The notes beneath the pieces are model-generated. The model had not been told where the DNA came from. It did no database searches and worked only from the letters and a program-made list of their open reading frames with translations. From IMG/VR virus record IMGVR_UViG_2711768069_000016: a stretch of 9,153 bases of DNA. The stretch is one strand, 5' to 3'. Of the stretch, positions 143-7,892 are shown one piece after another. Origin of the DNA: a virus. Taxonomy: Duplodnaviria > Heunggongvirae > Uroviricota > Caudoviricetes. How positions within the stretch are numbered: position 1 is the stretch's first letter; each line of letters opens with the position of its first letter. The position numbers were made by a program, and so were the translations under genes.

Positions 143-338
143 TTGCTTCATATGTTCAACTATGCGTTAATGATTGCGTCGGTTTGAAGAACAGACGATA
201 TACGAAGTAGTTTACTAAAGCAGTTCTCATTTCAGGTGTTATTCACTTATTCCTTCTTTGAGTCTCTCCAATTAAGTACGAAGTCGTTTCTGTTATGCAA
301 ACCATTTATGCCGAAAGGCTCAAGTTAAGGAATGTAGA
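143..338 (+). promoter_or_regulatory. cspB promoter and long cold-shock-type 5'UTR
   Basis: -35 TTGCTT (143-148), 17-nt spacer, -10 GTTAAT (166-171), preceded by an AT-rich tract. Transcript would start near 178-180, giving a ~160-nt leader. Leader has a cold-box-like GGTTTGAAGAACAGA near 181-195 and an upstream-box-like GCCGAAAGGCTCA (310-322), both resembling the cspA leader; SD AAGGA 327-331. Confidence 0.5.
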
Positions 339-554
339 ATGTCAAATAAAATGACTGGTTTAGTAAAATGGTTTAACGCTGATAAAGGTTTCGGCTTTAT
401 TTCTCCTGTTGATGGTAGTAAAGATGTGTTTGTGCATTTTTCTGCGATTCAGAATGATAATTATCGAACCTTATTTGAAGGTCAAAAGGTTACCTTCTCT
501 ATAGAGAGTGGTGCTAAAGGTCCTGCAGCAGCAAATGTCATCATTACTGATTAA
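339..554 (+). CDS. cspB: Cold-shock protein, CspA family (71 aa)
   Basis: ORF translation [38 protein letters not shown]... carries the RNP1 motif KGFGFI and RNP2 motif VFVHF of the cold-shock domain. The 71-aa length and sequence match my recollection of E. coli CspB. Confidence 0.93.
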
Positions 555-835
555 AATTCATCGCTCGTCTGTATACGATAACGAAGAAGGCTGATGCCTG
601 AGTAGAGATACGGACAGAGTAGTGAATATTGGATCTCTTTAATAAAAAGTAAGGAGGTCCAATACATGAAACAATGGCTAGCATATTTGGCAAAATCTTA
701 ATCAGGAAAAGTATGCTAACCATTGTGGTGAAGTGCAGGTTTGCTGCATGAATAGTTTTACAGCAGAAGCTAACTGCTGGCATGGCAAAACAAAGTGCGT
801 AAGTGGATGACTCCCACAAAAAGCACCACAATCTC

Positions 836-3045: not shown

Positions 3046-3225
3046 TTGCTATGGGTGGTTAATCATGCGTTAATGGTGTTCTGGTTTGTTACAAATTTAT
3101 CTGAAGCAGTCATTGTTATAATTTTATTATTTGTACCTCTTGAGATTTCCTTGTTGGTTTTTCTCTCTGATATTTTTTTTCGGACCATTCTGCCCAAGGG
3201 CTAATTTCTTCAAAAGGTAATAATT
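3046..3225 (+). promoter_or_regulatory. cspI promoter and long 5'UTR
   Basis: -35 TTGCTA (3046-3051), 17-nt spacer, -10 GTTAAT (3069-3074), in the same tgcgttaatg context as the cspB promoter. Upstream-box-like GCCCAAGGGCTAA (3192-3204); SD AAAGG 3213-3217. Downstream box ATGTCTAACAAAATGACTGG parallels cspB. Confidence 0.5.
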
Positions 3226-3438
3226 ATGTCTAACAAAATGACTGGTTTAGTGAAATGGTTTAACCCTGAAAAAGGTTTTGGTTTCATCACGCCGAAAGAT
3301 GGCAGCAAAGATGTGTTTGTCCATTTCTCAGCAATTCAGAGCAACGATTTCAAAACATTAACTGAGAATCAGGAAGTTGAATTTGGTATTGAGAACGGAC
3401 CTAAAGGTCCTGCCGCTGTTCATGTAGTGGCGCTTTGA
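3226..3438 (+). CDS. cspI: Cold-shock protein, CspA family (70 aa)
   Basis: [70 protein letters not shown] with RNP1/RNP2 motifs; matches my recollection of CspI. Confidence 0.93.
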
Positions 3439-3526
3439 GGTAGACAATATTACAAACCATATTCACTTTAGATGCCCGTGTTGTCATGGTTCCCAGTATA
3501 GAACATCATCTTTTGATGTTTCTGAC

Positions 3527-4063: not shown

Positions 4064-4111
4064 CGACTTACTGTGTAACTGGAAAGTCATAACAGACTAA
4101 AAGAGGAAATG

Positions 4112-4285
4112 ATGAATATTGAAAACTTAAAAACAAAAGCAGAAGCAGATATTTCTGAATATATAACAAAAAAAATTATTGAACTTAAGAAAAAGACCGG
4201 GAAAGAAGTTACCAGTATTCAGTTTACCGCACGGGAAAAAATGACGGGTCTTGAAAGCTATGATGTCAAGATTAATTTAATCTGA
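4112..4285 (+). CDS. gnsB: GnsA/GnsB-family small protein (57 aa)
   Basis: MNIENLKTKAEADISEYITKKIIELKKKTGKEVTSIQFTAREKMTGLESYDVKINLI; the C-terminal FTAREKMTGLESYDVKI matches my recollection of GnsA/GnsB. AAGAGGA (4101-4107) upstream; an in-frame ATG also at 4109. Absent from the ORF track only because of length. Confidence 0.85.
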   Translation: MNIENLKTKAEADISEYITKKIIELKKKTGKEVTSIQFTAREKMTGLESYDVKINLI

Positions 4286-4311
4286 TGTATTCAATAATAA
4301 AATTTATCCAT

Positions 4312-4337
4312 AAACCTCGTTTTTACGGGGTTTTGTT
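4312..4337 (+). terminator. Probable rho-independent terminator downstream of gnsB
   Basis: AAACCTCG (4312-4319) - ttttta - CGGGGTTT (4326-4333), 8-bp stem with one G-U pair, followed by a T-rich tract (ttttgttatattt). Confidence 0.5.
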
Positions 4338-4436
4338 ATATTTGAATGGTTCCGAATATCTAAATCACAATTGTTGATGGTTTTTATTAAACCAATGCAG
4401 TCCGGCTCAGGAGTGAGAGAAGCCGGACGTTATGGT

Positions 4437-4847
4437 TTAGCGTGGTAAGATCTGTGTAGTTTTCTGGATGCTTTCAGTAAATAGTAATGAATTATCAAAG
4501 GTATAGTAATATCTTTTTTGTTCGTGGATATTTGTAACCCACCGAAAAACTCCTGCTTTAGCAAGGTTTCTTCTGTATTCCTGAAATGTGATCTCTCTGG
4601 ATTTCAGCTTATTAGAGGTCGTTTCTATAAGATGCCTATCCTTTGAAAATTTGACAGACACAATGTTTTTTAGGCCCTTTAATAACACTGTATTATCATT
4701 TTTTAATACAATATGAACATTCTCTGTGGCTAAATAGTAAATGTAATGTGAGACATTGTGACGTTTTAGCTCAGAATAAAACCATTGATAGTTTAAATCG
4801 TTTCGAACTTTATCAAATATTTGTTTAAAAATGACTACCTGATCCAT
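4437..4847 (-). CDS. ydfO: YdfO-family protein (DUF1398), 136 aa
   Basis: Track ORF 4437..4862. I favour the second ATG (4847-4845) because GAAGG lies 7 nt upstream of it; the first ATG (4862) has none. Product [38 protein letters not shown]... matches my recollection of YdfO. Confidence 0.85.
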
Positions 4848-4904
4848 AGATAAACCTTCCATGTGATATGAGGGGGCGTAGTCTGCACGATTATCTAAAT
4901 TGCT

Positions 4905-5138
4905 TCAATCTGGTCTGACCTGTTTTCTGAGCAATTCAGTAATGTCACTCTTTTCTTTGTTTGCTTCAGAAGAAACTCTTTTTTCTGAGCACAGTCTCCG
5001 GCGGCAGGCTTCAATGACCCAGGCTGAGAAATTCCCGGACCCTTTTTGCTCAAGAGCGATGTTAATTTGTTCAATCATTTGGTTAGGAAAGCGGATGTTG
5101 CGGGTTGTTGTTCTGCGGGTTCTGTTCTTCGTTGACAT
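4905..5138 (-). CDS. ynfO: Small basic ribbon-helix-helix (CopG/Arc-like) DNA-binding protein (77 aa)
   Basis: GGGG SD 8 nt upstream of ATG 5138-5136. Basic N-terminus (TKNRTRRTTTR), then beta-strand RNIRFP, helix NQMIEQINIALEQKG, turn SGNF, helix SAWVIEACRRRL: the RHH pattern. Lies immediately upstream of ydfO on the same strand. The symbol is from recalled Qin gene order. Confidence 0.65.
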   Translation of the reverse strand: MSTKNRTRRTTTRNIRFPNQMIEQINIALEQKGSGNFSAWVIEACRRRLCSEKRVSSEANKEKSDITELLRKQVRPD

Positions 5139-5299
5139 GAGGTTGCCCCGTATTCAGTGTCGCTGATTTGTATTGTCTGAAGTTGTTTTTACGTTAAGTT
5201 GATGCAGATCAATTAATACGATACCTGCGTCATAATTGATTATTTGACGTGGTTTGATGGCCTCCACGCACGTTGTGATATGTAGATGATAATCATTAT

Positions 5300-5526
5300 C
5301 ACTTTACGGGTCCTTTCCGGTGATCCGACAGGTTACGGGGCGGCGACCTCGCGGGTTTTCGCTATTTATGAAAATTTTCCGGTTTAAGGTGTTTCCGTTC
5401 TTCTTCGTCGTAACTTAATGTTTTTATTTAAAATACCCCCTGAAAAGAAAGGAAACGACAGGTGCTGAAAGCGGGCTTTTTGGCCTTTGTCGTTTCCTTT
5501 CTCTGTTTTTGTCCGTGGAATGAACA
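5300..5526. other. Lambda-type cos site: cosQ/cosN cohesive-end sequence plus cosB with three Nu1-binding R sites
   Basis: ...GATCCGACAGGTTACG / GGGCGGCGACCT CGCGGG... matches the lambda right-end/left-end junction; the 12-nt cohesive-end sequence is 5338-5349. R3-like GTTTCCGTTCTT 5391-5402 (+), R2-like AGAAAGGAAACG 5446-5457 (inverted), R1 CGTTTCCTTTCT 5491-5502 (+), with an AT-rich IHF-like tract between R3 and R2. The ~200 bp upstream (5139-5337) matches what I recall of the lambda right end. Confidence 0.85.
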
Positions 5527-5784
5527 ATGGAAGTCAACAAAAAGCAGCTGGCTGACATTTTCGGTGCGAGTATCCGTACCATTCAGAACTGGCAGGAACA
5601 GGGAATGCCCGTTCTGCGAGGCGGTGGCAAGGGTAATGAGGTGCTTTATGATTCTGCCGCCGTCATAAAATGGTATGCCGAAAGGGATGCTGAAATTGAG
5701 AACGAAAAGCTGCGCCGGGAAGTTGAAGAACTGCGGCAGGCCAGCGAGACAGATCTCCAGCCACCCGCGCTACGGCATGGGTAA
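5527..5784 (+). pseudogene. nohQ: Terminase small subunit (lambda Nu1) N-terminal remnant, truncated after ~77 codons
   Basis: MEVNKKQLADIFGASIRTIQNWQEQGMPVLRGGGKGNEVLYDSAAVIKWYAERDAEIENEKLRREVEELRQAS... matches the lambda Nu1 N-terminus (winged-HTH cosB-binding domain). Similarity stops near 5763; the frame then reads PALRHG and stops. The rest of Nu1 and gene A are absent. Confidence 0.85.
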
Positions 5785-7042
5785 ACGTCTTGGTGCGGCA
5801 GATGTGGATAAATGGGCGCTGTATGTCATCGGCCAGTGTTGCGACCAGTCGGTGCCGGACGGTTTTGGCGGCACGGAGCCGCGCATCACCTGTAATGCCT
5901 GGCTGACCACACAGCGTAAGGCGTGGGATGTTCTCAGTGATTTCTGCTCGGCGATGCGCTGTATGCCGGTATGGAACGGGCAGACGCTGACGTTCGTGCA
6001 GGACCGACCATCAGATAAGGTGTGGACCTATAACCGCAGTAATGTGGTGATGCCGGATGATGGCGCGCCGTTCCGCTACAGCTTCAGCGCCCTGAAGGAC
6101 CGCCATAATGCCGTTGAGGTGAACTGGATTGACCCGGATAACGGCTGGGAGACGGCGACAGAGCTTGTGGAGGACACGCAGGCCATTGCCCGTTACGGTC
6201 GTAACGTCACGAAGATGGATGCCTTTGGCTGTACCAGGCGGGGGCAGGCGCACCGAGCCGGGCTGTGGCTGATTAAAACGGAACTGCTGGAAACGCAGAC
6301 CGTGGACTTCAGCGTGGGTGCCGAAGGGCTTCGCCATGTACCAGGTGATGTCATTGAAATCTGTGATGATGACTATGCGGGGATCAGCATCGGCGGGCGC
6401 GTGCTGGCGGTGAACAGCCAGACGCGGACACTGACGCTCGACCGTGAAATCACGCTGCCATCCTCCGGCACCACGCTGATAAGCCTGGTTGACGGGCAGG
6501 GTAATCCGGTGAGCGTGGAGGTCCAGTCCGTCACCGACGGCGTGAAGGTGAAAGTGAGCCGGGTTCCTGACGGCGTTGCCGAGTACAGCGTGTGGGGGCT
6601 GAAGCTGCCGACGCTGCGTCAGCGCCTGTTCCGCTGTGTGAGTATCCGTGAGAACGATGACGGTACGTATGCCATCACTGCCGTGCAGCATGTACCGGAG
6701 AAAGAAGCCATCGTGGATAACGGGGCGCACTTTGACGGTGACCAGAGCGGCACGGTGAATGGTGTCACGCCGCCAGCAGTTCAGCACCTGACCGCAGAAG
6801 TCACCGCAGACAGCGGGGAATACCAGGTGCTGGCGCGCTGGGACACGCCGAAGGTGGTGAAGGGGGTGAGCTTTATGCTTCGCCTGACCGTGGCAGCGGA
6901 CGACGGCAGTGAGCGGTTGGTCAGCACGGCCCGGACGACGGAAACCACATATCGCTTCACGCAGCTGGCGCTGGGAAATTACAGGCTGACAGTCCGGGCG
7001 GTAAATGCATGGGGACAGCCGGTGCACATACCCATTCGATGA
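5764..7042 (+). pseudogene. Internal fragment of a lambda J-like tail-tip/host-specificity protein (~420 codons), lacking its N- and C-termini
   Basis: Frame reads ...YGMGKRLGAADVDKWALYVIGQ...[14 protein letters not shown], which I recognise as collinear with the central part of lambda J. The ATG at 5675 in the ORF track lies in the Nu1 region in another frame and is probably not a real start. J similarity ends at about 7018, then 8 codons to a stop. Confidence 0.8.
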
Positions 7043-7317: not shown

Positions 7318-7892
7318 TGGCATTCAGAATGAGTGAACAACCACGGACCATAAAAATTTATAATCTGCTGGCCGGAACTAATGAATTTATTGGTGAAGGT
7401 GACGCATATATTCCGCCTCATACAGGTCTGCCAGCAAACAGTACCGATATTGCACCGCCAGATATTCCGGCAGGCTTCGTGGCTGTTTTCAACAGTGATG
7501 AGGCATCGTGGCATCTCGTTGAAGATCATCGGGGTAAAACGGTTTATGACGTGGCTTCCGGCGACGCGTTATTTATTTCTGAACTCGGTCCGTTACCGGA
7601 AAATGTTACCTGGTTATCGCCGGGAGGGGAATATCAGAAGTGGAACGGCACAGCCTGGGTGAAGGATACGGAAGCAGAAAAACTGTTCCGGATCCGGGAG
7701 GCGGAAGAAACAAAAAACAGCCTGATGCAGATAGCCAGTGAGCATATAGCGCCGCTTCAGGATGCTGTGGATCTGGAGATCGCAACGGAGGAAGAAACCT
7801 TGTTGCTGGAAGCCTGGAAAAAGTATCGGGTGTTGCTGAACCGTGTTGATACATCAACTGCACCGGATATTGAATGGCCAGCACTGCCGTAG
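7317..7892 (+). CDS. tfaQ: Tail-fibre assembly protein (Tfa family), 191 aa
   Basis: [78 protein letters not shown]... is characteristic of lambdoid Tfa chaperones. Start coupled to the stf fragment stop. Confidence 0.92.

Follow-up and report, generated by a model that had tools for sequence, protein, structure and literature searches.

The two minus-strand genes ynfO and ydfO, located in the 9,153-nt stretch of DNA analysed here (hereafter the window), are likely to be two independent accessory ('moron'-type) genes that lie antisense to the late operon. Comparison with related phages indicates that the two genes are inherited separately, and on block alignment they are separate mosaic blocks that also differ in base composition. 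The first-pass annotation of this DNA had proposed, from the gene layout, a type II toxin-antitoxin (TA) or other autoregulated regulator-plus-effector module. This proposal was not sustained, as the pairing is not conserved, ydfO has its own upstream region and no toxin or defence signature was found.

The window represents a Qin-type defective lambdoid prophage of E. coli. Its gene order is cspB, holin, ydfR, lysozyme, rzpQ, cspI, ynfN and gnsB, followed by ynfO/ydfO, and beyond these lie cos, a truncated nohA, tail-fibre genes and pinQ. The terminase has been lost from this prophage and ynfO is still intact. Matches to the ynfO/ydfO locus in complete E. coli genomes have 99.6-100% identity, and the names ynfO and ydfO are those used by RefSeq. 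The open reading frame (ORF) list showed that the two ORFs are co-directional on the minus strand and separated by a 57-nt spacer, in agreement with the first-pass annotation, and the other physical features claimed there were also recovered (Table 1). ydfO does have its own Shine-Dalgarno sequence, GGAAGG, and the locus does lie just inside cos, the distance from the ynfO start codon to the cosN sequence GGGCGGCGACCT being 200 nt. The position is likewise that of accessory genes, since the pair sits in the Rz-to-cos region, where lambda carries bor. An alternative ydfO ATG at 4862 gives a protein of 141 aa, which is the form used for PDB entry 2HH8.

Table 1. Features of the ynfO/ydfO locus (positions refer to the window)
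Feature	Position	Strand	Remarks
Hairpin between convergent gnsB and ydfO	4312-4333		Terminator-like score on the plus (gnsB) strand
Stable hairpin	4400-4428	minus	Directly after the ydfO stop codon; RNA fold of 4290-4440, z-score -3.0
ydfO CDS	4437-4847	minus	136 aa, DUF1398; soluble protein; ORF list, Pfam, PDB 2HH8
ydfO Shine-Dalgarno GGAAGG	4855-4860	minus	7 nt before the ATG at 4847; kept in L002 and L003
ynfO CDS	4905-5138	minus	77 aa, DUF3950 (YlcI/YnfO family); ORF list, Pfam, NCBIfam, RefSeq name
GGTCAGACC palindrome, PdhR-box-like	4912-4920	minus	Inside the ynfO 3' end; upstream region of the DUF1398 gene; single match in the window
Mosaic junction	4926-4975		50 nt in place of the 609-nt ybcW segment of lambda/DLP12; encodes part of the variable YnfO C-terminal tail
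ynfO conserved N-terminal core, codons 1-54	4976-5138	minus	Part of the cos-proximal mosaic block, which reaches at least 5400
Imperfect inverted repeat	5208-5240		13-nt arms, 85% complementary; 70-100 nt upstream of ynfO; candidate operator only
cosN cohesive-end GGGCGGCGACCT	5338-5349	plus	Exact match to lambda; boundary with the packaging module
cosB-type repeats	5391-5502		Repeat search
nohA remnant	5527-5784		Nu1-like ORF

The earlier assignment of the larger protein to DUF1398 (YdfO) was confirmed by a profile-HMM search and by a match to a solved structure. YdfO matched Pfam DUF1398 (PF07166) with an E value of 1.5e-46 and 157.7 bits (cut-off 22) over profile positions 1-119 of 119, and it matched PDB 2HH8 with an E value of 9.5e-87 and one differing residue; this entry is a solution structure that bears the name 'hypothetical protein ydfO'. 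Searches of Pfam, NCBIfam, PHROGs and PADLOC with YdfO returned DUF1398 or nothing, with no toxin or defence family among the results. A weak match to parafibromin (E 0.013) was gone in the profile search, and a structure-based assignment of function was dropped: the AF2 model, built from a shallow alignment, had a pLDDT of 47, and Foldseek against the PDB missed even 2HH8. ydfO is a real gene under purifying selection, with a dN/dS of about 0.2 relative to ybcV, values of 0.07-0.69 between alleles and no region above 1. Positive selection in the variable centre of the gene was considered and rejected (dN/dS there 0.07-0.38). The GC content of ydfO is 0.316, compared with 0.444 for ynfO and 0.440 for the whole window.

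A full-text literature search found no functional study of the DUF1398 or DUF3950 family, and the labels 'head protein' and 'envelope protein' carried by lambda p78 and its homologues look unfounded. Published expression data showed that ydfO mRNA was increased 12-fold (array) to 116-fold (qPCR) after ionic-liquid shock (PMC4077768), and a change in ydfO mRNA on DicC induction is also on record. The statement that overexpression of YdfO leads to oxidative-stress resistance (PMC4077768) was rejected, as it goes back to a confusion with yfdO of prophage CPS-53, the gene that the paper cited there concerns.

The first gene does encode a small basic protein, as the first-pass annotation described, and this protein is probably of DNA-binding type. 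YnfO matched Pfam DUF3950 with an E value of 2.7e-21 and 75.6 bits (cut-off 25) and the NCBIfam model YlcI_YnfO_N with 36.6 bits (cut-off 30), and no PADLOC defence model matched it. When codons 1-47 were compared with the copies in Stx phages, dN/dS was 0.03-0.07 at a dS of 0.7-1.4, implying that the core is conserved at the protein level and not at the DNA level. ynfO is thus a real gene under purifying selection. One stretch of nucleotides within ynfO is almost invariant, but its conservation did not clearly exceed what the codons demand. The C-terminal tail is encoded across the mosaic junction, and the tails are unrelated among family members, including those that adjoin DUF1398. An apparent natural YnfO-YdfO fusion (P0122, 233 aa, 761 member sequences) was discarded, because the DNA has a TGA at the junction that the gene caller had read as Trp.

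With regard to the ribbon-helix-helix (RHH) fold, no RHH family in Pfam gave a match to any of 26 members of the YnfO family even at E values up to 10, and sequence and profile searches of the PDB with YnfO matched no solved structure. A YnfO profile, diversified by the addition of a Pasteurella homologue, was aligned by hhalign with Arc, the query sequence having been confirmed as Arc by a PDB search. The result showed that YnfO residues 10-34 align with Arc residues 7-31 (P 0.004; one of 200 shuffled Arc sequences scored equally well) in the expected register, with N-I-R-F-P on N-L-R-W-P. The alignment with Mnt had the same register (P 0.09), and CopG gave no match. The AF2 model of YnfO consists of a coil, a helix at residues 19-32 and a further helix from residue 34. 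In addition, YnfO had a weak PHROG match to HicB-like proteins (E 0.01), and CopG/RHH names recurred among its weak BFVD matches. The support is weak but consistent, and YnfO is probably an Arc-like RHH protein. It would most likely be a small dimeric DNA-binding regulator with an Arc-like N-terminal ribbon, two helices and a tail that depends on the junction, and its residues T12, N14 and R16 would match Arc Q9, N11 and R13.

Comparison of the locus with related phages by blastn showed that its two halves differ in their identity to these relatives. In DLP12 and Tritos-type phages the ybcV block has 85-87% identity to window positions 4418-4925, which comprise ydfO and 78 nt upstream. For positions 4976-5400, comprising ynfO codons 1-54, the upstream region and cos, the identity to lambda, DLP12 and 434 is 96%. 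Four independent loci (L002, L003, L004 and L006) share the block ends 4925 and 4976. Stx/HK97-type phages share only positions 4998-5138, which correspond to the N-terminal 47 codons of ynfO. Strain D3 has 98-100% identity to the window on the ynfO side, as against 64-66% in the body of ydfO. In the Qin lineage, ynfO and ydfO would be adjacent only because the ybcW segment that lies between their homologues in lambda and DLP12 is absent, and YnfO appears to stay with the boundary of the packaging module and not with ydfO.

The distribution of the two genes was consistent with this arrangement in blocks. In lambda and DLP12 the order is ybcV(-), ybcW(+), ylcI(-) and cos, so that the opposite-strand ybcW splits the pair. 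Phage 434 and strain GPEC1240 carry ylcI alone, without DUF1398, and in Stx/HK97-type phages the DUF3950 gene is also alone and is divergent from HNH-terS-terL, at a distance of 41 nt in the Stx type. Conversely, Tritos-type phages and strain HCM-27C-1 have DUF1398 without DUF3950, and in the Tritos type DUF1398 and ybcW adjoin a different terminase. A weak DUF3950 match in the Tritos-type loci (19% identity) was rejected as an artefact of an HMM that contains error-laden read-through sequences. A tblastn search of the phage collection found DUF3950 in 153 records and DUF1398 in 43, which means that at least 72% of the phages with DUF3950 have no DUF1398. Among 75 DUF3950 loci from IMG/VR, sampled with a Stx-type protein as the seed, DUF1398 was present in 21 and missing in 54; the first 80-locus IMG/VR samples contained near-identical Qin-type copies only and were uninformative on co-occurrence.

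Distant DUF1398 loci (at most 49% identity) were also inspected, comprising the ycgX type and loci from Citrobacter, Klebsiella, Kluyvera, Raoultella, Pseudocitrobacter and Salmonella diarizonae. No DUF3950 ORF was found within 4 kb in any of the 30 loci, the ycgX type included, and none of the 30 had a conserved co-directional small neighbour. Several of these distant genes were found in plain chromosomal contexts, for example downstream of yeeE-yeeD. In E. coli, the best ydfO match was only 60-80% identical in 2368 of 5389 matching records, and the rows sampled among these were ycgX. The ynfO core was present in 9861 copies in 4184 of 5426 complete E. coli genomes, with up to 12 copies per genome, and at least 80% of the 1.1-kb query was covered in 2640 of the 5426 genomes, a count that includes the ybcW-interrupted type. 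The adjacent ynfO-ydfO arrangement is common and is seen with two or more diverged alleles of ydfO. The conserved pairing across genomes that a module would entail was therefore not observed: the pairing is confined to one lambdoid group, lambda and DLP12 have ybcW between the genes, and the pair is missing from all of the distant DUF1398 loci and from at least 72% of the phages with DUF3950.

These data bear directly on the TA proposal, according to which YdfO would be the toxin and YnfO an RHH antitoxin that neutralises it and represses the operon. The gene layout, with a small gene of basic DNA-binding type 57 nt upstream of a larger gene and no terminator between them, fits such a system, as does the weak PHROG match of YnfO to HicB-like antitoxins. 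However, the mosaic junctions and the separate occurrence show that the two genes are not co-inherited, orphan DUF1398 genes are usual outside this lineage (none of 30 distant loci with a DUF3950 neighbour) and ycgX is widespread in E. coli, and YdfO has no toxin or defence match in Pfam, NCBIfam or PADLOC. Moreover, the YnfO tail, the part expected to bind a toxin, is hypervariable and made by the junction even in the copies associated with DUF1398. Published genetic data also argue, indirectly, against a TA system. ydfO was listed as 'essential only by TraDIS' in an essential-genome paper whose main text does not include ynfO (PMC5821084), and a later study that used the TraDIS gene set counts the antitoxins hipB, higA and relB as essential (PMC8229198); an essential ydfO together with an unlisted ynfO is the reverse of what a TA system predicts. 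We suspect that the TraDIS essentiality of ydfO is an insertion or mapping artefact, the gene being AT-rich and having paralogues. For ybcV, a Keio deletion strain and an ASKA overexpression clone both exist in the literature and both grow; the clone was scored for glycogen phenotypes, implying that the overexpressing cells grew (PMC2853380). On this evidence a TA function is highly improbable, and ynfO-ydfO should not carry the TA label.

The sequences around the two genes were also inspected for regulatory signals. No terminator-like site was found between ynfO and ydfO, and a consensus scan of 4200-5600, including the region upstream of ynfO, found no sigma-70 consensus promoter. Conservation with ybcV (L002) and with the Tritos-type gene (L003) extends over the 70 nt before ydfO, a segment in which the GGTCAGACC palindrome is found together with a GATAAT motif and the Shine-Dalgarno sequence. 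Genomic SELEX with PdhR showed in vitro binding at the GGTCAGACC palindrome of the ybcV/ybcW and ynfO/ydfO loci, and ybcV mRNA was reduced 10-fold in a pdhR mutant (PMC7660256). In lambda and DLP12 the upstream region of the DUF1398 gene faces the divergent ybcW, implying that the gene is transcribed there without ynfO; judged from this arrangement, the DUF1398 genes of DLP12 and lambda probably have their own promoter. The first-pass annotation had named separate promoters and a terminator between the genes as evidence that would speak against a module. The DUF1398 genes do carry their own conserved upstream region with a PdhR-bound palindrome, and ynfO and ydfO have no terminator between them. 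The hairpin between gnsB and ydfO also forms on the minus strand, where it is not followed by a clean T-run, and it probably ends ydfO transcripts as well. In the Qin arrangement, transcripts from a ynfO promoter may extend through ydfO, but such co-transcription is not required.

Such co-transcription is central to the suggestion that the Qin-type pair is a working operon without TA function, in which YnfO autoregulates a leftward promoter near cos and ydfO is, partly or wholly, read-through cargo. The co-directional genes with their 57-nt spacer and no terminator, the 3' structures that appear only after ydfO, the wide occurrence of the adjacent arrangement and its retention with two diverged ydfO alleles, and the inverted repeat upstream of ynfO are all in line with this suggestion. 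On the other hand, ydfO retains the upstream region of its lambda/DLP12 homologue together with the PdhR-bound palindrome, and that homologue is expressed with no ynfO upstream. There is also no promoter consensus upstream of ynfO, and the lambda-type and Stx-type flanks have no common motif despite a proposed DNA-binding segment that is about 90% identical. When these flanks were compared for a shared cis operator, no common 11-mer or longer was found and 10-mers occurred at chance level, and the inverted repeat at 5208-5240 was absent from the Stx-type loci in the flank comparison. We regard an operon of this kind as rather unlikely.

The same comparison of flanks is relevant to a possible role of YnfO/YlcI in the packaging module, in which the protein would bind near cos or the terminase promoter region and modulate packaging or late transcription, ydfO being irrelevant. 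Nearly all sampled loci with enough upstream flank have a divergent packaging gene as the nearest upstream neighbour of the DUF3950 gene, and this holds for two unrelated systems, lambda cos-Nu1 and HNH-terS-terL. The very strong conservation of the ynfO core (dN/dS 0.03-0.07) would agree with such a role, as would the listing of the DUF3950 family in capsid-forming PICIs (PMC13612085) and the presence of an unannotated homologue in the Pasteurella element Pmp7, which carries a terminase gene. However, the two upstream contexts have no common sequence, which makes a shared cis target near the packaging genes unlikely, and ynfO is antisense to the late operon. The prophage in the window has no terminase and an intact ynfO. 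Furthermore, packaging still occurs with lambda cloning vectors from which this region is missing, which also counts against a packaging role. We therefore consider this explanation distinctly improbable.

Given that the DUF3950 contexts have no common flanking motif, the target of YnfO, if the protein binds DNA, is probably not beside the gene. It is conceivable, though unlikely, that the DUF3950 protein is a trans-acting Arc-like regulator common to many co-resident prophages, with ydfO as an unrelated neighbour. A near-invariant core of 47-54 residues without a shared cis motif would fit a common target elsewhere, in combination with the up to 12 copies per E. coli genome, the retention of the gene at the lysis/packaging junction in lambdoid phages of two unrelated packaging systems and the homologue in a Pasteurella element. 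If this were true the target might be involved, for example, in cross-talk between prophages or in the control of a host gene.

Two independent accessory genes thus remain the preferred explanation. ynfO and ydfO would occupy a non-essential region between the lysis genes and cos. Since they are antisense to the late operon, they are expected to be expressed from the prophage and not during lytic growth, and expression in lysogens is also presumed by analogy with bor and from the published ydfO transcript data (PMC4077768). YdfO may be viewed as a soluble DUF1398 protein whose gene brings its own 5' region with a site, bound in vitro, for the host pyruvate regulator PdhR, and which appears to have partner-less chromosomal paralogues such as ycgX. 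For YnfO an RHH fold and DNA binding are presumed; the same applies to transcription through ynfO into ydfO in Qin and to any role in physiology. DUF3950 is a widespread and highly conserved small phage protein, and it represents a cheap and well-defined target for functional work.

ynfO and ydfO are already named and annotated, one structure has been solved, and the adjacency of the genes is a by-product of phage mosaicism. In the K-12 Qin locus, ynfO and ydfO have the same sequence, order and spacing and likewise lie between cspI-ynfN-gnsB and cos-nohA, and by sequence the locus in the window is K-12 Qin ynfO/ydfO or a near-identical copy, with no difference of substance. RelBE, ParDE and CcdAB, TA systems with RHH antitoxins, resemble ynfO-ydfO in layout alone; unlike them, ynfO and ydfO are not co-inherited, include no toxin family and have widespread orphan homologues of the supposed toxin, an unconserved antitoxin tail and a regulatory region of ydfO's own. 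Arc and Mnt of P22 are of a size like that of YnfO and have a basic N-terminus with an N-[IL]-R-[FW]-P motif; in YnfO this motif would likewise form a strand and precede a helix, a Gly turn and a second helix. The genes for all three proteins lie in the late region of temperate phages; however, no significant sequence or fold match links them to YnfO.

The right end of lambda and DLP12 consists of bor, lambdap78 (ybcV, DUF1398), lambdap79 (ybcW), an unannotated ylcI ORF and cos. The position and strand of the genes are as in the window, YbcV is 79% identical to YdfO, and YlcI is identical to YnfO over approximately the first 50 residues; the differences are the 609-nt ybcW segment between the genes and another YlcI tail, which gives a protein of 64 aa. 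In the RefSeq record of lambda, p78 is labelled 'head protein' and the ylcI ORF is unannotated, and this ORF is strongly conserved, with 64 aa and a start at 48,303, about 200 nt from the end of the record at 48,502. Like bor and other lambdoid morons, ynfO and ydfO lie between modules on the strand opposite to the late operon and are present or absent among otherwise homologous phages, whereas the AT-rich composition and the 3' hairpins of morons apply to ydfO only.

Examination of the right end of the phage lambda genome (NC_001416; locus L313) showed that it encodes a YlcI-type ORF of 64 aa to which RefSeq assigns no annotated feature (see table). Residues 1-50 of this ORF are identical to YnfO, and strong purifying selection acts on the YlcI/YnfO family, to which it belongs. 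For lambdap78, the lambda DUF1398 gene, RefSeq and PHROGs give the label 'head protein', and other sources 'putative envelope protein'. Both labels look unfounded: the gene lies outside the head genes and on the opposite strand, paralogues of it occur on chromosomes, and its product is a homologue of the soluble protein in PDB 2HH8.

Features of the window and of the phage loci compared with it
Feature	Location	Strand	Remark
cspA-type thermoregulator leader of cspB	window 178-570	+	Rfam
cspA-type thermoregulator leader of cspI	window 3080-3465	+	Rfam
gnsB	window 4109-4285	+	convergent with ydfO; RefSeq 'GnsA/GnsB family addiction module toxin'
nohA (Nu1 homologue) and overlapping 455-aa ORF	window 5527-7042	+	
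IS009 RNA, within tail-fibre assembly gene	window 7660-7858	+	Rfam
lambdap78 (DUF1398)	L313 1143-1676	opposite to head genes	PHROG 413
YlcI-type ORF, 64 aa	L313 2210-2404 (NC_001416 48109-48303)	-	about 200 nt from lambda right end
DUF3950 homologue, 59 aa, unannotated	L315 3001-3180 (Pasteurella phage Pmp7)	+	39.6% identity over tblastn match

Matches to DUF1398 and DUF3950 also appeared in Pseudomonas, Kitasatospora, Brevibacillus, Staphylococcus, Flavobacterium and others (loci L014-L053; many ENA proteins, P0014-P0120 and P0138-P0239). These matches were located on contigs of about 3.5 kb, a size that fits the nanopore control amplicon, or close to the end of a contig about 48.5 kb long; their DUF1398 gene was 79% identical to ydfO, the same value as for lambda's copy. 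The assemblies look contaminated by lambda control DNA; the true hosts of the DUF1398/DUF3950 genes are Enterobacteriaceae.

A 233-aa cluster of 761 member sequences (P0122) suggested a natural YnfO-YdfO fusion. In the window, ydfO is in frame with ynfO, with one TGA and 19 sense codons between the two (4848-4907), and the TGA is present in the DNA behind the fusion (L316 301-1002). The fusion was thus dismissed as the product of a gene caller taking TGA as Trp on short contigs. RefSeq gives a toxin name to gnsB, and therefore the closest annotated toxin-like gene is the neighbour on the other strand, not ydfO.

Comparison of ydfO at L314 (2539-2949) with that of the window (4437-4847) showed that the gene centre (window 4600-4700) is only 64-66% identical between two loci otherwise 98-100% identical. 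The ydfO alleles are thus mosaic in their own right. With a dS of 1.4 and a dN/dS of 0.25 in the centre, this divergence indicates exchange of old alleles and not positive selection. The K-12 ydfO has been classed as 'essential only by TraDIS' (PMC5821084); an insertion-bias or mapping artefact is suspected, because the gene has a GC content of 0.316 and a paralogue, ybcV, that is 79-85% identical. In addition, ydfO and yfdO have been interchanged in the literature (PMC4077768, PMC9181523, PMC3105296): the source cited for increased oxidative-stress resistance on YdfO overexpression actually concerns YfdO of prophage CPS-53, and another paper has ydfO in place of the intended yfdO.

nohA presumably diverges from lambda Nu1 past about 78 residues, and runs into the overlapping 455-aa ORF, which resembles the tail-fibre/host-specificity protein J. 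This junction would mean that the head and tail genes have been deleted from the prophage, leaving an intact cos without terminase.

Among more distant homologues (L057-L075), in 12 loci from Kluyvera and related genera, a neighbouring gene of about 75-105 aa is conserved about 170-500 nt upstream of the DUF1398 gene and reads divergently from it. In Pmp7, the DUF3950 homologue is antisense to a 224-aa ORF that is annotated as a 'transcriptional repressor' and looks spurious by its sequence. The Pmp7 element is small and satellite-like, with genes for primase, excisionase and terminase.
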